Assembly (NCBI GenBank): GCA_964615415.1
Contig: CAZTNI010000002.1
Location: forward strand, 4,873-68,872
Reading direction: 5' to 3'
DNA from: an uncultured Candidatus Saccharibacteria bacterium
GTDB lineage: Bacteria; Patescibacteriota; Minisyncoccia; Phycocordibacterales; SBAW01
Length of the DNA stretch: 64,000 nucleotides
Both the position numbers and the translations under genes were made by a program. Under the pieces are notes generated by a model. The model worked only from the letters and a program-made list of their open reading frames with translations, did not search any database and was not told the DNA's origin. This document shows positions 15,377 to 55,754 of this stretch, piece after piece (position 1 is the stretch's first letter; every line of letters begins with the position of its first letter).

Positions 15377-16057
15377 GTGACTAGCGGATGCCTCAAGCGG
15401 CATCCGCTATTCATACTGTCTTTCGAATTGTCTCGTTACTGTATGTATATGGAGGAACGTATGCGACGCTACACACTAGTAGGTGCACTCACGTTGGTTG
15501 CAGCGTGTGTGTTTGTTGGCACGGTAGTGCGTGCAGTTTTTTATGCGCCCGATGCAGAGAGTCCGGTGCTTATGGAAGAGGTGTCGTCTGCGAGAGGAAT
15601 TGGCGTACCGACGCGCCTGCACATCCCGGCTGCGGGAGTTGATGCTTCGGTACAGCGAACAGGTATTACGACAAAAGGAGCCATGGCAGTTCCAAGTAAT
15701 TACGCTGATGTGGGGTGGTATAGGTATGGTACTCGACCAGGAGAAAAAGGGAGTGCGGTTATCTCAGGCCATCTTAATAACGGTTTTGGGCTCGATGGAG
15801 TGTTTGCAGATCTGTCGCGATTGAAACGGGGAGACGAAATTTTTGTTGAAACAGATCGTGGCGAGGAGATGCGGTTTGTTGTAGTAGAGGTGGAGACATA
15901 TCCATACACAGAGGTGCCTACAGAATTTCTGTTTAATAGGAAGGATGTTCCGCGACTCAATCTTATTACGTGCGACGGTGCATGGGTGGGGAGTGAAAAA
16001 ACTTACGATCGTCGGCTTGTGGTCTATGCTGAGTTTAGGGAAGCGGATCAAATATAG
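15377..16057 (+). CDS. sortase (transpeptidase)
   Basis: N-terminal TM anchor; catalytic His in AVISGH, Cys in LNLITCDG (TLxTC), Arg in YDRRLVVYAE. The start is probably the internal Met at about 15449. Confidence 0.8.
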   Translation: MTSGCLKRHPLFILSFELSRYCMYMEERMRRYTLVGALTLVAACVFVGTVVRAVFYAPDAESPVLMEEVSSARGIGVPTRLHIPAAGVDASVQRTGITTKGAMAVPSNYADVGWYRYGTRPGEKGSAVISGHLNNGFGLDGVFADLSRLKRGDEIFVETDRGEEMRFVVVEVETYPYTEVPTEFLFNRKDVPRLNLITCDGAWVGSEKTYDRRLVVYAEFREADQI

Positions 16058-23545: not shown

Positions 23546-24235
23546 CTAAAAGGACTGAGGCGTGCTGCCGGGAAAAATTGAAAGAGTGGACAGCGGCAGG
23601 AGTCGCACTAAGGCTCGTCCTACAATATGGTCTCGAGGTAAGGGACCCCATACGCGAGAGTCAGAACTTTCGGGGCGGTTGTCGCCCATAACAAAGAATT
23701 CGTCTTGTCCGAGTGTGAGTTCTAGGTTGCCGCCGTTTCCTTCGTTTACGACGTATGATTCTTGCAGTGTCTCCCAGGTGGTGCTTTGTGCGCTGCGTAC
23801 ACTAACAATGCCGCCGGAAATGCGAACTGTTTCGCCTGGTGTGCCGATAATGCGCTTAATAAAGTACTGCGTTGGATCCTTTGGATATTTAAAGATAACA
23901 ACATCGCCGCGGTCTGGTTCTGTAACGCGGTAGGAAAGCTCATCTACAATCAAGTACTGGCCGTTTTCAAACGTTGGGTCCATTGATGCGCCGCTTACGA
24001 TAAACGGCTGGGCGATAAAAAGACGCACCGGAACAACAATAACAACCGCAATAAGAGCAAATTTAAGGAGTTCTGTGAAAAAATTCTCACTTTTCTCCTG
24101 TGGCATGCACATCATTGTATGCGACCCGCAAAACAATGCAAGCGGTTGATGCAACCACAAAGCACATAGTGCGAGAAAAATAGTCTGGCCCGAGAGGCTC
24201 CGAGCCGATACGGGAGAACCGAGGACTTTTTTCAC
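23546..24235 (-). CDS. lepB: signal peptidase I
   Basis: Catalytic Ser box SGASM, box E GDNRPESSDSRVWG. Confidence 0.85.
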   Translation of the reverse strand: MKKVLGSPVSARSLSGQTIFLALCALWLHQPLALFCGSHTMMCMPQEKSENFFTELLKFALIAVVIVVPVRLFIAQPFIVSGASMDPTFENGQYLIVDELSYRVTEPDRGDVVIFKYPKDPTQYFIKRIIGTPGETVRISGGIVSVRSAQSTTWETLQESYVVNEGNGGNLELTLGQDEFFVMGDNRPESSDSRVWGPLPRDHIVGRALVRLLPLSTLSIFPGSTPQSF

Positions 24236-31544: not shown

Positions 31545-31556
31545 GTGTACTATTCT

Positions 31557-32795
31557 ATGCCTTCCAGTAAAGAAAAGGGTGATCTGCTGGAAGAGATAAT
31601 TGAAGAACTGTGCGTAGGAATTAAAAATGTAAAAGTATCACGAAATTTAAAAATAATTGGTAAAAAAACTAAAGAAGAAAGAGAAATCGACGTTTATATC
31701 GAAGGAAAACAAGGAGTATTTGATATAAAAATTGCAATTGAATCTAAAAATTATGGAGAACCAGTGGGTGTTGAAAAAGTTGAGAGTTTCAAAGCAAAGT
31801 TAGAAGATATTGCTGCTGATTTAGGTGTAATGGTGTGTCCAACTGGATTTACAGAGCCAGCAAAAAAACGAGCAGAGTTTGACGGAATTCAATTATTTGA
31901 GGTGTATGATGAACGGCTGGGTAACAGCAAATGGTTTATTCCTATTCGTTTCATTGAACCTGAATTAACAAAACATCGCTTTACTTTTAAAGGGAGGGGA
32001 GGTGGTCCTTTCTCAATATCTATAGATTCACAAAAATGGAGATTTCATATAGAAGGGAAAATACTCACAACTGAAGAGTTCACCACCTATCTGTGGAATA
32101 AAGGAAAGATTCCTCAAAAAGCAGGTGAACATAAAATTGATCACGGCGCAGTCGTTATTAGTGAAGAAGGGAATCCAGATAAGGTGCAATATTGTGAAAT
32201 AGAAGTAGATGTTGTAGTTGAAGAGCGATATTTTTTAAAATTAATTCCAGCCTCTTTTCTTAAAAAAACTTCTGAAAATAAACAAAATTTCCAAATCAAA
32301 TTAGATCTCTATTCTAAGGAAAAAGACATGTTAAATAATGGTTGGAGAAAATTTCTCACTTTAGAAGAAATGAACCAAGCGGCAGATATTGAAAATCAAC
32401 CAGAAGGAATTAGGGGTTTAATATTGCATCCGAAGTATACGTATGAGTATGCTAAAAAGCACGAATTGCGTTTGCATCCGCGACCTTTCGAAAAGATTCG
32501 CAGCGGCAAGCAAATAATCGAGTCGCGGCTCAATGATGAAAAGCGTCAACAGATTAAAGTCGGGGACCATCTTGTGTTTGCTTTGCGGCCAGATTTTGTA
32601 GAAAAAGAAGAGGTGGAAGTGGTGGAGCTAATCCATGCGCCCACATTCCGCGACCTATTTCTTTCGCGTCCACTTACGGAATTTGGTATAGAAGATGGAA
32701 ACATTGAGCGAGTAGAAAATATGTACGAATACTACTCCAAAGAAGATGAAGCAAAATACGGAGTAGTTGGTATAAAATTTAAAAAACATGGCTAA
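31557..32795 (+). CDS. Mrr-like PD-(D/E)XK nuclease fused to a C-terminal ASCH (PUA-like) domain; candidate modification-dependent restriction endonuclease
   Basis: N-terminus: EIDVYIEGK ... IKIAIESKNYG (D...ExK restriction-endonuclease core). C-terminus: FEKIRSGKQIIESR...IKVGDHLVF...VEVVELIHAPTF...YGVVGIKFK matches the ASCH fold (compare E. coli YqfB). The N-terminal two thirds are about 32% GC; the ASCH part is about 47% GC. Confidence 0.65.
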   Translation: MPSSKEKGDLLEEIIEELCVGIKNVKVSRNLKIIGKKTKEEREIDVYIEGKQGVFDIKIAIESKNYGEPVGVEKVESFKAKLEDIAADLGVMVCPTGFTEPAKKRAEFDGIQLFEVYDERLGNSKWFIPIRFIEPELTKHRFTFKGRGGGPFSISIDSQKWRFHIEGKILTTEEFTTYLWNKGKIPQKAGEHKIDHGAVVISEEGNPDKVQYCEIEVDVVVEERYFLKLIPASFLKKTSENKQNFQIKLDLYSKEKDMLNNGWRKFLTLEEMNQAADIENQPEGIRGLILHPKYTYEYAKKHELRLHPRPFEKIRSGKQIIESRLNDEKRQQIKVGDHLVFALRPDFVEKEEVEVVELIHAPTFRDLFLSRPLTEFGIEDGNIERVENMYEYYSKEDEAKYGVVGIKFKKHG

Positions 32796-33264
32796 ACCTC
32801 CACAACAGTCGCCGGATTTTCCTGATGCTTTTTATCGTGTGACGGTAAAGGGGATCTGTGTGCGTGATGGAAAAGTGCTTTTTGTGCGCGATGTCACGAA
32901 TAAACATCGTGTAAATGGTTCTTTAGAGCTTCCTGGTGGCGGGCTCGATTTTGGCGAAGATATAGAAAAAGGTTTTGTGCGCGAGGTGCAAGAGGAAATG
33001 GGTTTGAAAGTAAAATGGATGTCCAAAAAACCTTTGTATCTCTGGACGTCGAAACAGGGGTCGAGGCGGGGAATGGAATGGTACTGGGTGCTTGTGCTCG
33101 CATATACGTTTGATGTAGAAGATTTTAACTTCACTCCTACTGACGAATGCAGAGAGTTAGTTTTTCTCTCTAAGGAAGAAATGAAAGAACGTCGCGACGA
33201 CATGGCAACCCAGATTCAATTTTTGGTTGAATATTTTGATCCAAAGGATTTTGAAAATAAGTAG
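32788..33264 (+). CDS. NUDIX hydrolase
   Basis: Nudix box GGGLDFGEDIEKGFVREVQEEMGL (GX5EX7REUXEEXGU); the ATG overlaps the upstream stop by 8 nt. Confidence 0.85.
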   Translation: MAKPPQQSPDFPDAFYRVTVKGICVRDGKVLFVRDVTNKHRVNGSLELPGGGLDFGEDIEKGFVREVQEEMGLKVKWMSKKPLYLWTSKQGSRRGMEWYWVLVLAYTFDVEDFNFTPTDECRELVFLSKEEMKERRDDMATQIQFLVEYFDPKDFENK

Positions 33265-37660: not shown

Positions 37661-38071
37661 ATGATACGCACATTTTTTGTAACTCTGGCACTCCTCCTTT
37701 CGCCGCTATTTGTCTTTGCACAAGGAGGAGGGTTTGATACACCAGGTGGTGGTGTTGATACTGCAGGAGGAGGAGTCGACAATGCCTACTCGCTCCAGAA
37801 TCCTCTTAACGTTAGCTCTGTTCCGGAGCTCCTCGACCGATTTTTCCAAGCGATTCTTATAATTGTAGTGCCGTTTGCGGTTTTGTTTATTGTCTACGCT
37901 GGTTTTCGGCTTATTCTTGCGCGTGGTAATCCGAAGGAGCTTGCAACCGCGAAGCGTCAGCTCCTTTATACACTGCTTGGTATCGCAATTGTTATCAGTG
38001 CCTCAATCATCATCAATATCCTGATAGACACCGCGTGTCAGGTTGATATTAGAGGTGTGTCTGACTGCTAG
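37661..38071 (+). CDS. pilin-like small protein, copy 1 (signal peptide + 2 TM; VirB2/TrbC-like architecture)
   Basis: Signal peptide ...VFAQ; Gly-rich mature N-terminus; helix - NPKELATAKRQ loop - helix; ends in NILID. Confidence 0.55.
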   Translation: MIRTFFVTLALLLSPLFVFAQGGGFDTPGGGVDTAGGGVDNAYSLQNPLNVSSVPELLDRFFQAILIIVVPFAVLFIVYAGFRLILARGNPKELATAKRQLLYTLLGIAIVISASIIINILIDTACQVDIRGVSDC

Positions 38072-38073
38072 CT

Positions 38074-38409
38074 ATGTTTGAAGACGTCCGTACATTTGCA
38101 GACTTTGTGGCCGTTATAGTCGGCTATGTAAACCTTATTGTAGGGTTGTTAGCCTCGATAGCGTTGTTGATGTTTTTAGTAAACATTGTGCGTTTTGTAT
38201 TTGAAATCTCGAGCGGAAAGTATAAAGCAGAGCGTAAAAAGGCAATTATGTGGAGTGTTGTTGCGCTCTTCGTCCTTTTTTCTATTGCAGGCATTGTCCG
38301 TGTGTTGATGGTTACATTGTTGCCTAACGAAACGTACCGGGAGTCCTGGACCACAGACCGTACAAACTACCCGAACCAGTACCCGGTCGACATAGACTCG
38401 CTTAACTAG
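38074..38409 (+). CDS. pilin-like small protein, copy 2
   Basis: The same helix - basic loop (SSGKYKAERKKAIMW) - helix module; starts 3 nt after copy 1. Confidence 0.5.
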   Translation: MFEDVRTFADFVAVIVGYVNLIVGLLASIALLMFLVNIVRFVFEISSGKYKAERKKAIMWSVVALFVLFSIAGIVRVLMVTLLPNETYRESWTTDRTNYPNQYPVDIDSLN

Positions 38410-38488
38410 TTGTCCACAGGAAGGCCCGCTGGGCCTTGAGGCAGGGGTTGGGTCTGCTACAGTTAAGGCATATAAGTATTAATATTGT

Positions 38489-38836
38489 ATGAAAAAGTTA
38501 CTTGCAGCTTCGTCTTTGATATATGCTCTTCCGTTCGTTGCGTTTGCACAGACAGACGCAAAAGATACTATTACTCAGCTTGTGGAAGCACTAGGAGGTA
38601 TCGTAGATCTTCTTATCCCAATAATGATCGGTTTGGCTCTCGTTATCTTCTTCTGGGGTCTTATCCGCTTCGTATTTAACCAGGGTAGCGATAAAGCAGC
38701 AGCTGCTAAGAAGTACATGCTTTGGAGCGTTATCGCACTCTTCATCATGGTGTCTATCATGGGCATTATCGGAGTGATCCGCACCACCTTGGGTGTTAAC
38801 GAGGATTCAACTATAAAGGCTCCAAGTATTAACTAA
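38489..38836 (+). CDS. pilin-like small protein, copy 3
   Basis: Signal peptide ...AFAQ; LIPIMIGLALVIFFWGLIRFVF - NQGSDKAAAAKKY - MLWSVIALFIMVSIMGIIGVI. Confidence 0.55.
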   Translation: MKKLLAASSLIYALPFVAFAQTDAKDTITQLVEALGGIVDLLIPIMIGLALVIFFWGLIRFVFNQGSDKAAAAKKYMLWSVIALFIMVSIMGIIGVIRTTLGVNEDSTIKAPSIN

Positions 38837-38842
38837 TTCTGA

Positions 38843-39118
38843 ATGGATCCGCGCTCGTTTACACAGAGTCTCTCGGACAATGTTATCCAGCCCTTCATAC
38901 TCTTGTTCTTCGCGCTCGGGTTCCTGATCTTCGTCTACGGTATTGTGGAGTACGTGTGGGGTCTTTCGACCGACACGCTTGCTAAGGAAAACGGCAAGAA
39001 GCACATGCTCTGGGGAGTCATCGGTATGTTTATCATGGCGGGTGCGTATGGGATCTTTAACCTCATGGTGGATCTGATAGGCGCTCCAGTCGGTGTCGAC
39101 ACTATCTGGCGAGACTAA
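38843..39118 (+). CDS. pilin-like small protein, copy 4
   Basis: FILLFFALGFLIFVYGIVEYVW - AKENGKKH - MLWGVIGMFIMAGAYGIF; same module. Confidence 0.5.
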   Translation: MDPRSFTQSLSDNVIQPFILLFFALGFLIFVYGIVEYVWGLSTDTLAKENGKKHMLWGVIGMFIMAGAYGIFNLMVDLIGAPVGVDTIWRD

Positions 39119-39135
39119 AAAACAGACAAAAGAAA

Positions 39136-39170
39136 AACGGCGGGCCCTGAAAAGGGTCCGCCGTTTGCGT
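39136..39170. terminator. bidirectional rho-independent terminator
   Basis: AACGGCGGGCCC-tgaaaa-GGGTCCGCCGTT with an A-run upstream and TTGCGTT downstream. Confidence 0.7.
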
Positions 39171-39181
39171 TGTAGAAGGTA

Positions 39182-40063
39182 CTAGAAACAGACGTAGAGG
39201 CTGGTGCGTGGTGAGTGCGGAATGCAGAGCGTGTGCGAGATGGTCGCCTCTGCGGTAACTGCCTGCACCGAGTAGATGCTGTACGCAGTTACCACCACGT
39301 CGCCGCGCACACAGGCGCGGTCTATCACCACTTCGCCCGCGCGGTTGAGGAAGGCAACACAGCCCGACTCGACCACCCAGCGTAGCTCGCAGCCGTTTGC
39401 ACTGATTACTCGCGGTTCTTCTCCTGCCCGAAGGGGGAGAAGTTCCGACGTGCCAGGGCACGCGGCTGCTGCTGCACTTTCAGAAAATGGCCACCACATT
39501 GTCTCTACGATCTGGGCGCGTGCCGAGGAGACGAGCCCCAAGGTCACAACGACCGCAAAGAAGGTGAGTGCAAGATGGTTAGGCTTCATCGCGCCGGGGC
39601 TTATCATCGAAATGATGATGAGGACGACGAGGTAGGCGATCGACCCCACGAGAATACCCACCAAGATAAGAAGAGCGATGTCTGTCACGAAGGACAAGAC
39701 CGGCTCTGGGATCACCCTGGTAACATTCTCGTACACTTCCGGCGGCACAATCGTCACGAGGGCGGTCAGGCCGATGGTAAGGAAGAGAACCGGAGCCCAT
39801 GCCCACCAGTACCGCCAGATGCTGCTTCGTCCGGACGATGTGTCCGACGAAGAGGTTTCAGAGGCGTGTTCCTCGTGCCCATGATCCTCCGCGTGTTCGT
39901 CGTGGTGGTCGTCTGCATGATGGTCGGTGTGAGGTGCCGGAGCAGTCATGGTCTCCTTGATCCTTTTGGTGCGACGATGGTCGCGATACAAGCCAAGGGC
40001 GACGATACTGAAGAGCAGTAACGCCCCCACTAGAGCAAGTGTTGCTATCTGTCCTACTGTCAT
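39182..40063 (-). CDS. polytopic membrane protein with a His-rich loop and a C-terminal soluble domain (possibly NfeD-like)
   Basis: HTDHHADDHHDEHAEDHGHEEH tract; four TM helices; C-terminal approximately 100-aa soluble domain; start overlaps the upstream SPFH gene stop (ATGA). Confidence 0.45.
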   Translation of the reverse strand: MTVGQIATLALVGALLLFSIVALGLYRDHRRTKRIKETMTAPAPHTDHHADDHHDEHAEDHGHEEHASETSSSDTSSGRSSIWRYWWAWAPVLFLTIGLTALVTIVPPEVYENVTRVIPEPVLSFVTDIALLILVGILVGSIAYLVVLIIISMISPGAMKPNHLALTFFAVVVTLGLVSSARAQIVETMWWPFSESAAAAACPGTSELLPLRAGEEPRVISANGCELRWVVESGCVAFLNRAGEVVIDRACVRGDVVVTAYSIYSVQAVTAEATISHTLCIPHSPRTSLYVCF

Positions 40064-41370
40064 GGAGTGTCAGGTCCTTGTGGCGGAGTAGTGCCGCTGG
40101 TACGGTTTCTCCGGTCAGGGTTGCGCAGAGCGTCGAGAATAGCCACCTGTACTGGATCAACGGACGGGCCGCTGGTGCCAGGGAGGATAACCATTCCGCC
40201 TGCTTCGCCGGCAGCTTTCGCTGCACGGACCATTCCTTCGATGTGCGGAATCGCTTCCGCACCTGGGTGAGTCTTGAGAGCCTCGCCCTGTTCGCGAATG
40301 TCGGCTGCCTTGCCTTTTGCGCGCTCTTCCATCGCCTGACGGTCGATGCGAGCAATGGCGAGGTCGCCGAGAGCATCATATCGACTCTTGTCAGACGGGC
40401 TGATGTCGAGTACTTGGACAGAGGGAAGTGCGATGCCGAACTCAACGGCAGCGCCCTGCATGATGACGCCTCTTATAATGCGACCATTCTCGTTGAGAAT
40501 AGTTTCTTCGAGCTCGCGCACTAGCGCAGGACTTTCCGCCGACAACACAGCTTCAAGAGGCCGGGGCCTCGTATAATGCGTTACCGAGTCAGAGATCGTT
40601 GCGATAAGACGTGTACCCCAGTCGTCGTCCGAATTGTACGCAGTGAGGTGCGGATTGAATACCCGCGCTATTGCGTTGACAAGGATTTCGACCGGGATCT
40701 TGTCCTTCGTGTCGGCAGCCGGTACCCGCAAGGGGAACTGGAAGTCGCCGACGCGATAGTGGTCGCTCCAGTCAAGGAGTCGACGAAGTTCGATCTCGCC
40801 ACCGCTTTGCGTGATCTTCTTGAAGTGCTCAAGAGGATAGGTGCGGACTTTCTGGAACGGGTAGATGCCGGTAAAGACAGCACCCGTCAACCAGTACACC
40901 CACTCCTTCCACAACCAGAAGAGAATGCTGAGCGGCGAGTAGAAGATCCAGAGTATTGTCCATATCCCGTACAATCGCTTGGTGGGAAATGGAATAGGAT
41001 CTGAGCCGCCTGAGTAGATAGAAGGGACTACCTCCCAGTAGTGAACGTCTCGGATGGTGTAGCCGCTTGCAGGATCTTCGCCGAGGAACATCTTGTCGTG
41101 CGATTTCATAATCGCGTACTTAAAGAGGTCGCCTCGCTCGATTATCTTCACCTTCTCGGGTTCGATGTAGGTGAAGTAGCCAAAGTCCGACTTCTCGTGG
41201 TCTGGTGCTGTGCCGAGGTCGTCGTGCACGGTGTCCGTAGTGCCGCGGTATTTATTTGGCCTGTTGGTGAGTCTGTCGATAAGACCCGGCCACAATGGCA
41301 GCAGAAAGAGAAACAAAACTACGCTACCAAGAATGCCCAGTGCGTAGCCAAGAACCGGATCTACGATCAT
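40060..41370 (-). CDS. SPFH/band-7 (stomatin/flotillin-like) domain protein with an unusual 180-aa N-terminal 2-TM region
   Basis: SPFH core pattern (TKDKIPVEILVNAIARV...VEFGIALPSVQVLDISPSD) plus a coiled-coil tail; about 60% GC. Confidence 0.65.
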   Translation of the reverse strand: MIVDPVLGYALGILGSVVLFLFLLPLWPGLIDRLTNRPNKYRGTTDTVHDDLGTAPDHEKSDFGYFTYIEPEKVKIIERGDLFKYAIMKSHDKMFLGEDPASGYTIRDVHYWEVVPSIYSGGSDPIPFPTKRLYGIWTILWIFYSPLSILFWLWKEWVYWLTGAVFTGIYPFQKVRTYPLEHFKKITQSGGEIELRRLLDWSDHYRVGDFQFPLRVPAADTKDKIPVEILVNAIARVFNPHLTAYNSDDDWGTRLIATISDSVTHYTRPRPLEAVLSAESPALVRELEETILNENGRIIRGVIMQGAAVEFGIALPSVQVLDISPSDKSRYDALGDLAIARIDRQAMEERAKGKAADIREQGEALKTHPGAEAIPHIEGMVRAAKAAGEAGGMVILPGTSGPSVDPVQVAILDALRNPDRRNRTSGTTPPQGPDTP

Positions 41371-54133: not shown

Positions 54134-55270
54134 ATGCCTCGTAAGCGGAAGGCTCTTGCACTTTTTTCAATTGGTATCGCACTCCTGCTTCCTGTCTTTA
54201 CCTATGCCCAAATACAGCCGAGCGGGGCGGGACTTGTGCCGTGCGGCGTTACACAAGACAGTCCTTTAAGTACAGAAAAAGATGTTGGAGTTGCTACAGA
54301 ATGCGAAGCCTGCCACTTGGTGCAGCTTACGCAAAATATTATCCACTTCCTGATAGGCCTTGCGGTTTCAATTGCAGTATTGATGTTTGCGTGGGCGGGT
54401 ATCCTCTTCTTTACCTCGAATGCAAATCCGGAGAAGATTAACAAAGGTAAGCGCATCTTCGGACAAACATTGTTTGGGTTCCTATTAGCGCTCTGTGCGT
54501 GGATTATAGTTAACACCCTCCTTTTTATTCTTATTGACCAACAGCAGTTCCCGCAAAGCACCTGGTTTGAAGTTGAATGTGCGAAAAGTCGGGCTGTAGT
54601 GGCCGATAAGGAGTTTGGTCAAATCGTGCTCGGCGCTATTGGTAACGTAGAATCTATACCGCTCTTTAAAATACAAGATGGCACCAGGCCGGACGGACAG
54701 TATTCATGTCCTGCTGGCTTTACGTACGACACGACTGCGCGTATGTGTCTGAACGGACAAGGGGGTGCAGAAGAGCCCGACTTTATTGCGCCTCTCGGCA
54801 GTGGAGCATTCACTCCTAATAGTGAAGCTACTGTCGATTTTGGATCTTGCGGAGGGGAGGGAAGTATTGGTAGCAGAATTATGCGGTGTGCCACCTTGTA
54901 TGCGGACTCAAGAGTAAGTTCTGCTAAGTGTAGTCCCAATGTAGATGGAGGAAACCTGGCATGTGCATGTATGGTAAACAAAATTCTTAACGGCGCCGGT
55001 ATTTTGTCTATAGATGCGGACAGTGTTCCTGATATGGTTGCGGCCCTAAAAGCTGGCAGAGGAAGGCAGATTTCTATTCAATCTGCGCAGCCTGGAGACA
55101 TTGTGTTTTGGCAATACACGAGCCCAAGAAGAAGCCATGTGGGTATTTGTGCAACTCCAGGCTGTACCCAGGTATACAGTAATTCCTCAAGTCAGGCCGT
55201 TGTACGTCTCACTACAAGTGATTATCTGGGCGTCGACCCTTCATCTGTTTATCGGATAAATGACTTCTAA
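54134..55270 (+). CDS. fusion: pilin-like N-terminal module (same family as 37661-39118) + C-terminal NlpC/P60-like cysteine peptidase (cell-wall hydrolase) domain
   Basis: N-terminus: signal peptide, CxxC, then IIHFLIGLAVSIAVLMFAWAGILFFTSNANPEKINKGKRIFGQTLFGFLLALCAWIIVNTLLFILID. C-terminus: Cys in NLACACMVNKIL and His in PGDIVFWQYTSPRRSHVGIC (papain-like Cys...His order). Confidence 0.6.
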   Translation: MPRKRKALALFSIGIALLLPVFTYAQIQPSGAGLVPCGVTQDSPLSTEKDVGVATECEACHLVQLTQNIIHFLIGLAVSIAVLMFAWAGILFFTSNANPEKINKGKRIFGQTLFGFLLALCAWIIVNTLLFILIDQQQFPQSTWFEVECAKSRAVVADKEFGQIVLGAIGNVESIPLFKIQDGTRPDGQYSCPAGFTYDTTARMCLNGQGGAEEPDFIAPLGSGAFTPNSEATVDFGSCGGEGSIGSRIMRCATLYADSRVSSAKCSPNVDGGNLACACMVNKILNGAGILSIDADSVPDMVAALKAGRGRQISIQSAQPGDIVFWQYTSPRRSHVGICATPGCTQVYSNSSSQAVVRLTTSDYLGVDPSSVYRINDF

Positions 55271-55274
55271 CTAT

Positions 55275-55754
55275 ATGAATAAATCAATCACCGTACTAAT
55301 AGTTATATGTATCCTTGTGATCCTCGGTGTTGCCGCGGTCTTGTTTTGGCCACGCGCAACTATGCCTGTCCCTAATGAAACACCAGGTCTGCCTGTCTCA
55401 GGGAATTCTAATACTAACGGTACTGTTTCAATTCCGGTTCAAAACGAAGGGGGTGGCAATTCGCAGCTTTCTGCTGAACAACGCGCTGTACAGGAGACGT
55501 ACTGGGCGCCTTTTGTAACCGACGGAAATAACGATAATGTGCGGCTTGGTAATACTGCCGTAGTAGAAGAATGGGCACTCCAAAAGTGGGTAGGAGATGA
55601 GACGGGAGGAGAAGCCCTACTTCGGTACGATAGTGTAAGTAAGGCGTGGGTGGTGGTGGACGTGGGCGGTGGAGCCTGGAGCGTCGATGCACTTGTCCGT
55701 GCGGGTGTACCTGAAAGCGTGGCAGGCTCTCTCCTTAGCAAACTGCGTCAATAA
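55275..55754 (+). CDS. membrane-anchored hypothetical protein
   Basis: N-terminal TM (ITVLIVICILVILGVAAVLF); the start overlaps the upstream gene end. Confidence 0.5.
   Translation: MNKSITVLIVICILVILGVAAVLFWPRATMPVPNETPGLPVSGNSNTNGTVSIPVQNEGGGNSQLSAEQRAVQETYWAPFVTDGNNDNVRLGNTAVVEEWALQKWVGDETGGEALLRYDSVSKAWVVVDVGGGAWSVDALVRAGVPESVAGSLLSKLRQ

Follow-up and report, generated by a model that had tools for sequence, protein, structure and literature searches.

A four-gene array of divergent VirB2-like pilin-family proteins on a Paceibacteria chromosome

Much of the diversity of bacteria belongs to the Patescibacteria, which live attached to other microbial cells. A type IV secretion system (T4SS) with a series of pilins is essential in the one species of the phylum that is open to genetics; in Candidatus Southlakia epibionticum, the predicted pilins described by Wang 2023 form a series that lies within the essential T4SS cluster (PMC10633639). 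In the survey of Quiñonero-Coronel 2025, which used PF18895 and PF04956 for the pilins, VirB4 was found in 2,417 of 3,035 Patescibacteria assemblies (80%); VirB2-like pilins were present in 1,948 of the VirB4-bearing assemblies, near virB4 in only 1,135 of them and away from it in about 40%, and the survey counted 441 arrays of 2–11 VirB2-like genes, averaging 25% identity (PMC12102498). A 2025 review repeats the array findings (PMC12857230). The Patescibacteria system has its source in Gram-positive-type T4SSs (mating-pair formation class FATA, MPF-FATA), which are normally without a pilus (PMC12102498; PMC10633639). Here we describe a tandem array of four genes for small two-helix proteins (pilin paralogues 1–4, hereafter copies 1–4) in a 64 kb stretch of Patescibacteria DNA, which we call the window. 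At a probability of roughly 60%, we take these genes to encode VirB2-like pilin subunits of a chromosomal T4SS encoded elsewhere, building a pilus or conduit. The array type has already been described in the phylum and the locus is a further example of it; the four-type, two-pair layout, the alternation of leaders, the methyltransferase and solute-binding-protein (SBP) context, the covariation of cysteines and the hydrolase fusions set out below may go beyond the published description.

The original prediction described four consecutive open reading frames (ORFs) with a conjugative-pilin (VirB2/TrbC-like) two-helix architecture; the four ORFs are on the plus strand (Table 1), and the coordinates and lengths given for them proved exact. 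Its four basic loops, NPKELATAKRQ, SGKYKAERKK, GSDKAAAAKKY and AKENGKKH, were all recovered, in copies 1–4 in that order, and in each copy two strong hydrophobic segments flank the loop (Kyte-Doolittle, 19-residue peaks of 1.8–2.8). All four copies exceed the gathering score of Pfam family PF18895 (T4SS_pilin, 26.6 bits) with E values of 1.7e-14 to 3e-6, and an independent, precomputed annotation of the same four proteins agrees with this membership. Against PF04956 (TrbC/VirB2, gathering score 27.9 bits) copy 1 falls exactly on the threshold at 27.9 bits (E = 2.8e-6) and copies 2–4 give no match, while the best NCBIfam match of all four is NF045849, at 12.8–31.8 bits and thus below its cut-off of 40 throughout. 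The predicted architecture is thereby upheld by a pilin-family profile for every copy. Identity among the four is 17–40% in local pairwise alignments; because all pass PF18895 and have positional orthologues in other genomes they are true paralogues, and on the same two grounds an origin as chance ORFs was rejected. Holin-like and other small-membrane-protein families were also rejected as the identity of the four copies, as were type IV pilins (T4P, PilA-like): the copies have AxA-type Sec leaders or none and two transmembrane (TM) helices, instead of a class III signal peptide (G↓F/M-xxx-E) and a single helix, and no T4P Pfam family matched any of them. We regard the family assignment of the array as close to certain. 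In layout, divergence and host the array also agrees with the definition of Quiñonero-Coronel 2025 (at least two PF18895/PF04956 genes in tandem or one non-pilin gene apart), with gaps of 2, 79 and 6 nt, an identity range that compares with a reported mean of 25% and maximum of 54%, and a Patescibacterium as host.

Table 1. Features of the window discussed in the text, with their positions in the window and the evidence or remark attached to each.
Feature	Position	Strand	Evidence or remark
Sortase	15377-16057	+	fits monoderm envelope
Signal peptidase I (lepB)	23546-24235	-	fits monoderm envelope and Sec-type processing of pilins 1 and 3
SAM (S-adenosylmethionine)-dependent class I methyltransferase, 180 aa	35800-36342	+	Methyltransf_31 75 bits, Ubie_methyltran 47.9 bits
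SBP, membrane-anchored, sugar-type (family 1, MalE-like), 430 aa	36365-37657	+	SBP_bac_8 61.8 bits, SBP_bac_1 52.7 bits
Pilin paralogue 1, 136 aa	37661-38071	+	PF18895 54.0 bits; PF04956 27.9 bits
Pilin paralogue 2, 111 aa	38074-38409	+	PF18895 34.5 bits; hydropathy and charges
Pilin paralogue 3, 115 aa	38489-38836	+	PF18895 32.5 bits
Pilin paralogue 4, 91 aa	38843-39118	+	PF18895 27.7 bits
G+C-rich hairpin between A-run and U-run	39135-39166		RNA fold -30.1 kcal/mol, z = -6.2
Convergent gene pair	39182-41370	-	293-aa membrane protein and 436-aa sub-threshold SPFH protein
Fifth pilin-module protein, 378 aa	54134-55270	+	PF18895 39.5 bits, hairpin residues 62-129

Copy 1 opens with a Sec signal peptide (residues 1–21, cleavage VFA↓Q, MIRTFFVTLALLLSPLFVFA↓Q), followed by a Gly/Asp-rich linker, a QNPL motif, a helical hairpin (54–86 and 91–128) around the loop RGNPKELATAKRQ, and a C-terminal tail that holds Cys127 and Cys136; its orthologues are 38–76% identical. 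The start codon of copy 2 lies 2 nt past the stop of copy 1, and the protein begins MFEDVRTFADF, with no signal peptide, a short acidic N-tail and two TM helices. Copy 3, 40% identical to copy 2 and preceded by a 79-nt spacer in which RNA folding gave no significant structure (z = 0.44), again carries a Sec signal peptide (cleavage AFA↓Q, MKKLLAASSLIYALPFVAFA↓Q) ahead of its two TM helices. Copy 4 starts 6 nt after copy 3 with MDPRSFTQ, has no signal peptide and two TM helices around the loop KENGKKH, and shares 47% identity with the gene at position 4 in a distant relative, with the motif GKKHMLWG conserved. After a short acidic tail, copies 2 and 4 run straight into helix 1, and their ORFs are already open at the first possible start codon after the upstream stop, so that no upstream extension is possible; the signal peptide ending in FAQ that had been proposed for three of the four copies is confined to copies 1 and 3. 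The LW/MW said to open helix 2 is found in copies 2–4 and is replaced by LLY in copy 1.

Related loci were collected by a degenerate-pattern scan, based on a nine-sequence alignment, of the GTDB representative set (one genome per GTDB species, the window's own genome not included), in which the best match is 39–50% identical. Relatives of copy 1 occur at 23 loci, all of them in Patescibacteria metagenome-assembled genomes (MAGs) labelled Adlerbacteria, Kaiserbacteria, Nomurabacteria, Niyogibacteria, Paceibacterota/Parcubacteria, Woesebacteria, Saccharibacteria or generic Patescibacteria. A hidden Markov model trained on the window copies together with the first homologues found for them detected a tandem array at every related locus except one; 16 of the 23 loci hold four genes, and the other sizes are two or three genes (three loci, at contig ends), five (two), seven (two) and eight (one), with a single pilin-like ORF at locus L028. 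One relative has a copy 1 of only 42% identity; against its array, each of the window copies best matched the gene at the same array position, the positional pairs giving Smith-Waterman scores of 213, 175, 228 and 198 and the off-position cross-genome pairs 38–158. Type 1 comes first in 20 and type 4 last in 19 of the 23 classified arrays, and the nine closest genomes keep the strict order 1-2-3-4. In these nine genomes the position-1 protein has, besides its signal peptide, the QNPL motif and a long linker rich in Gly, Ser, Asn and Pro; positions 2 and 4 lack a signal peptide, and position 3 has one in all but one case (the L009 ORF is without). Intergenic gaps repeat a small/large/small pattern, 2/79/6 nt here and, for example, 3/101/27, 2/78/24 and 3/97/0 elsewhere; because this pattern recurs across genomes, the array is to be seen as two tightly coupled dicistronic pairs, in each of which a gene with a signal peptide is followed by one without. 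Comparison of copy 1 with its closest available relative (77% amino acid identity) gave a nonsynonymous divergence (dN) of 0.175 with saturated synonymous divergence (dS), hence no computable dN/dS, and the adjacent SBP gene gave dN 0.206 and dN/dS 0.12 in the same comparison. Copy 1 evolves no faster than this neighbor and is under purifying selection. We favor a reading of the four copies as a fixed, ancient set of non-redundant subunits, and not as interchangeable variants.

The link to experimentally characterized pilins appears real but thin. In hhalign comparisons with an alignment of four VirB2/TrbC sequences from Agrobacterium, Rhizobium and Acetobacter, the N-proximal Cys region, the first TM helix, the loop and the second TM helix fall in register (P = 0.0014–0.005, probability 7–18%). 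An AlphaFold2 model of copy 1, built from a 65-sequence alignment, has a mean predicted local distance difference test score (pLDDT) of 82.5 with helices at 2–21, 54–86 and 91–128. The first of these is the signal peptide; a disordered linker separates it from a hairpin of 33 and 38 residues whose helices exceed pLDDT 90. Structure prediction had been proposed as a check on the pilin assignment; the helical hairpin fits VirB2 and TraA, but the fold is too generic to discriminate, and the model neither supports nor refutes a pilin.

The 65-sequence alignment of type-1 pilins holds a pattern of paired cysteines. An N-proximal and a C-terminal Cys occur together in 44 of the 65 members and the N-proximal Cys never occurs alone (0/65); six members, the window copy among them (C127, C136), have an alternative pair just after helix 2 and at the C-terminus, and eight have none of these cysteines. 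Such covariation suggests an extracellular disulfide which in most members would tie the two ends of the protein together, and by analogy this may recall the head-to-tail cyclization of VirB2/TrbC. The family itself is large, an exhaustive search of 1.84 billion cluster representatives returning 58,028 relatives at E <=1e-3, and its top matches include "polypilins" with two to eight modules per chain (P0011, P0012 and P0023). P0012 (L037 76-1743) is an uninterrupted ORF under genetic code 11, with 555 aa and six modules, and is followed by three single-module pilin genes. Since natural multi-module fusions exist, Rosetta-stone logic leads us to infer that the modules of the array contact each other.

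A CPR-like (candidate phyla radiation) host had been guessed in the original prediction. The guess was right: all 23 related loci lie in Patescibacteria MAGs and GyrA of the window is 81–85% identical to that of the nearest related MAGs (labelled Adlerbacteria, Nomurabacteria and "Patescibacteria group"), so that the host is a Patescibacterium of the Paceibacteria/Adlerbacteria group. All window ORFs of at least 500 aa and nearly all of at least 130 aa were scanned against profiles. Among these no VirB4, VirD4/T4CP (type IV coupling protein), VirB6 or VirB3 was found, in agreement with the earlier remark that no VirB4 or VirD4 ATPase lies nearby, and T4SS genes were also looked for, and not found, in the 8 kb to the right of the window, which hold topA, a resistance-nodulation-division (RND) pump gene, dprA and serS. 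The window is ordinary chromosome, with murJ, lepA, a class I tRNA synthetase gene, tsaD, ftsA/ftsZ, lepB, an S1 ribosomal protein gene, gyrA, the gene for translation initiation factor 2 (IF-2), clpB, miaA, pyrF, parB, relA/spoT, topA, 13 tRNA genes and a sortase gene. Directly after gyrA lies a stretch of low G+C content (31545–33264, 0.39–0.42 versus about 0.50) that encodes a 416-aa protein with Mrr_cat and ASCH domains and a NUDIX protein, and that may have been acquired horizontally. Because no T4SS gene stands beside the array or beside the 23 related arrays, the link to a T4SS is one we infer from homology and from the literature.

On the reading that we prefer, pilin subunits of a T4SS encoded elsewhere, the four copies would insert in the cytoplasmic membrane so that the K/R-rich loop faces the cytoplasm and both termini lie outside, following the positive-inside rule, and the signal peptidase I encoded in the window would cut copies 1 and 3. 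The paired cysteines of the type-1 pilins would form an extracellular disulfide, and the four types would associate as a hetero-oligomer; up to eight of these modules share a single polypeptide in other genomes. From this membrane pool, a VirB4-type ATPase with its platform could then assemble a short pilus or conduit that crosses the wall in the direction of the host cell, and the putative pilin-anchored peptidoglycan hydrolase described below may help. Several observations weigh against this reading. T4SS ATPase, VirB6 and VirB3 genes were found neither in the window, nor in the 8 kb to its right, nor within 10 kb on either side of the 23 related arrays, and the operon setting of VirB2/TrbC, with virB3, virB4 and virB6, is thus lacking here as it is around those arrays. 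The similarity to characterized pilins is weak (the hhalign probabilities given above), a PDB sequence-profile search with the 65-sequence alignment found no pilin, only a chance match to NuoK at E of about 0.3, and pilins are absent among the structural neighbors listed. Copies 2 and 4 are leaderless, unlike VirB2, TrbC and TraA; a leader on every subunit, as in VirB2/TrbC, is replaced by leaders on copies 1 and 3, and the orthologues repeat the pattern. Polyproteins of six to eight modules, with 12–16 TM helices, suit a membrane-resident complex more easily than a filament. To our knowledge, a pilus has yet to be observed for any T4SS of the Patescibacteria.

In the main rival reading, the four PF18895 members form a permanent hetero-oligomeric membrane complex, possibly part of the channel or stalk base of a T4SS, and not an extruded pilus. 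A membrane-resident complex would account for the polypilins no less well than an extruded filament would; natural polyproteins of two to eight modules indicate that the modules pack side by side in a membrane. Copies 2 and 4 without a cleavable leader, and four types kept in fixed stoichiometric gene pairs, point the same way, as does the usual absence of a pilus from MPF-FATA T4SSs (PMC12102498; PMC10633639). Set against this are the family's weak relationship to the VirB2/TrbC filament subunits, the extracellular Cys pair and long low-complexity linker of type 1, which suggest surface exposure, and the preference of reviews for a pilus (PMC12857230). On balance we consider a permanent membrane complex rather unlikely, though it is the best placed of the alternatives.

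A fifth gene of the window carries the same pilin module. Its product begins with a signal peptide (TYA↓Q), followed by an invariant CxxCH-like Cys cluster (PCG…C-x-A-C-H) and then by a T4SS_pilin hairpin; the C-terminal domain is NlpC/P60-CHAP-like. This domain scores 20.1 bits against NLPC_P60 and 20.2 bits against CHAP, both sub-threshold, and its catalytic Cys and His align in register with those of CwlO (E = 0.9); top Foldseek matches to MepS and Tae3, both of NlpC/P60 type, offer weak corroboration, coming from a low-confidence AlphaFold2 model (pLDDT 56). The homologues keep the pilin anchor, and three of seven (P0165–P0167) carry a different C-terminal domain with SCHYGG…AVDF…H-x-H motifs, for which Pfam returned no match. 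These motifs resemble those of a LAS/M15-type metallopeptidase, in which case one kind of wall-hydrolase domain would have been exchanged for another on the same anchor in P0165–P0167. A homologue of the fifth gene also sits after clpB in a relative. The protein is a candidate pilin-anchored cell-wall hydrolase with a VirB1-like function, judged from sequence and model, and a wall hydrolase on a pilin module, as expected of a VirB1-like helper, modestly supports a T4SS context. An ORF at 55260–55754 on the plus strand, encoding a membrane-anchored protein of 164 aa, overlaps the end of this gene by 11 nt; the protein scores 33.5 bits against the copper-uptake-associated domain NF033672 (cut-off 50, hence sub-threshold), and a 148-aa ORF follows the homologous pilin-hydrolase gene in the relative L033.

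Upstream of the array lie an SBP gene and a methyltransferase gene (Table 1). The SBP matches sugar-binding proteins of the PDB at E = 7e-8, its gene ends 3 nt before pilin 1, and 24 related loci have an orthologue (35–55% identity) immediately before the array. In 22 related loci a methyltransferase orthologue (35–62% identity) immediately precedes the SBP gene, often with a 4-nt overlap, and stop/start overlaps or gaps of a few nt are common throughout the methyltransferase–SBP–pilin cluster. More than 20 Paceibacteria genomes keep this order, with a variable outer neighborhood. The wider region is also syntenic in related genomes, with gyrA upstream and IF-2, an aminotransferase gene, a protease gene and clpB downstream; because of this broad synteny adjacency alone overstates functional linkage, and the tight packing of methyltransferase, SBP and pilin genes is notable despite it. 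In some relatives a further ORF of 73 aa separates the SBP gene from pilin 1 (L002 9758-9979, L004 3731-3952 and L008 9764-9985); it is weakly pilin-like (E = 3.9e-5 in L008) and absent from the window. We found no mention of an SBP or gyrA context of such arrays in the text of PMC12102498.

This packing lends some weight to a second rival, in which array, SBP and methyltransferase together serve a T4SS-independent role, as a surface or uptake structure that scavenges host sugars or as an adhesion device. The recurrent gene order with its overlaps and few-nt gaps speaks for such a role, as do the lack of any T4SS gene within 10 kb on either side of the related arrays and a bona fide sugar-type SBP for which no ABC permease partner was found among the scanned window ORFs. 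The adjacency may, however, partly mirror gene-order conservation in a region that is syntenic as a whole (gyrA … IF-2, clpB, parB), arrays in other classes occur without an SBP, as at the Woesebacteria locus L027, and the Saccharibacteria array sits inside a T4SS cluster (PMC10633639). We hold a T4SS-independent role to be improbable. We also think it quite doubtful that the Paceibacteria four-type set forms the core of a separate conserved machine, a hetero-oligomeric surface conduit that captures host sugars or glycans and is made of two pilin pairs, the SBP, the methyltransferase and the pilin-anchored hydrolase, with a disulfide-tied type 1 in place of a cyclized pilin.

The earlier suggestion of tandem diversification of a surface-exposed subunit, in which the array would be a rapidly evolving set of cassettes that serves antigenic or host-range variation, is very improbable: the low within-array identity (17–40%), the expansion to five to eight genes in some lineages and the mention of this possibility in the 2025 survey (PMC12102498) are opposed by positional best matches (Smith-Waterman 175–228 versus 38–158 off-position), by order, size, signal-peptide pattern and gaps that are kept across genomes, by a dN of copy 1 (0.175, dS saturated) no higher than that of the SBP gene (0.206), and by the lack of noticed repeats or recombination cassettes, no repeat search having been made.

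Downstream, the original prediction had set the array against a GC-rich SPFH operon, as it had set it against an SBP upstream. The SBP and a downstream pair of higher G+C content (0.56–0.58) are both there, and the SPFH label falls short of its threshold (Band_7 22.5 bits versus a cut-off of 23.6). The 293-aa membrane protein of this convergent pair contains a His/Asp-rich stretch (HTDHHADDHHDEHAEDHGHEEH). No homologue of either gene was detected in any related locus by BLAST or four rounds of jackhmmer, and the pair was rejected as part of the conserved unit for this reason; related genomes too have a two-gene convergent pair at that position. The G+C-rich hairpin between copy 4 and the pair, with no equally stable fold among 200 shuffles, probably acts as an intrinsic terminator in both directions, closing the pilin operon as well as the convergent pair. 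Consensus scans for promoters and terminators gave background levels only.

For Paceibacteria, the largest class of the phylum, the locus adds detail: its four subunits are distinct and come as two gene pairs, which are co-packed with an SBP and a methyltransferase and are not linked to the ATPase genes. The multi-module fusions and the covarying Cys pair limit the possible modes of subunit assembly.

Among systems outside the phylum, the nearest profile is that of the Mbov_0395 family (NF045849), pilin-like proteins of integrative and conjugative elements in Mycoplasma, which are wall-less monoderms with an MPF-FATA-type T4SS, the class in which the Patescibacteria system nests; this family is the best NCBIfam match of all four copies, and with every score below the cut-off of 40 the copies are not members of it. 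With VirB2 (the Agrobacterium T-pilin), TrbC (RP4) and TraA (F) the copies share small size, two hydrophobic helices and a short basic cytoplasmic loop, and the N-proximal Cys aligns with the Cys of the VirB2 motif NNICTF; a leader is shared by copies 1 and 3 only, and copy 1 lies right at the PF04956 threshold. They differ from these pilins in marginal sequence similarity, in the leaderless copies 2 and 4, in a monoderm host and in the absence of adjacent virB1 and virB3–B11. The leaders of VirB2, TrbC and TraA have 40–50 aa, and those of the window, of about 21 aa, are unlike them in length. VirB2 and TrbC cyclize head-to-tail, whereas most type-1 members instead carry a Cys pair at their ends that would form a disulfide. 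The VirB2 paralogues of Bartonella and of Anaplasma/Rickettsiales are alike in being divergent tandem copies that lie apart from part of the T4SS genes; those arrays belong to intracellular pathogens and are read as variants that serve antigenicity or host interaction, whereas the copies described here are ancient positional orthologues under purifying selection.

The closest systems are the arrays of Patescibacteria themselves, namely SEML1_0006-0019 of Ca. Southlakia epibionticum ML1, the "Sec-secreted array" of TM7x and the 441 arrays of the survey. Common to these and the present locus are PF18895, tandem and divergent two-helix proteins, the phylum, and a chromosomal location instead of one on a mobile element. 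The array described here differs in lying neither inside nor next to a T4SS cluster, and in belonging to Paceibacteria, the surveyed arrays being commonest in Microgenomatia and Saccharimonadia. It further differs in its organization, a fixed four-gene set with an alternating signal peptide that forms an operon with a methyltransferase and an SBP gene.

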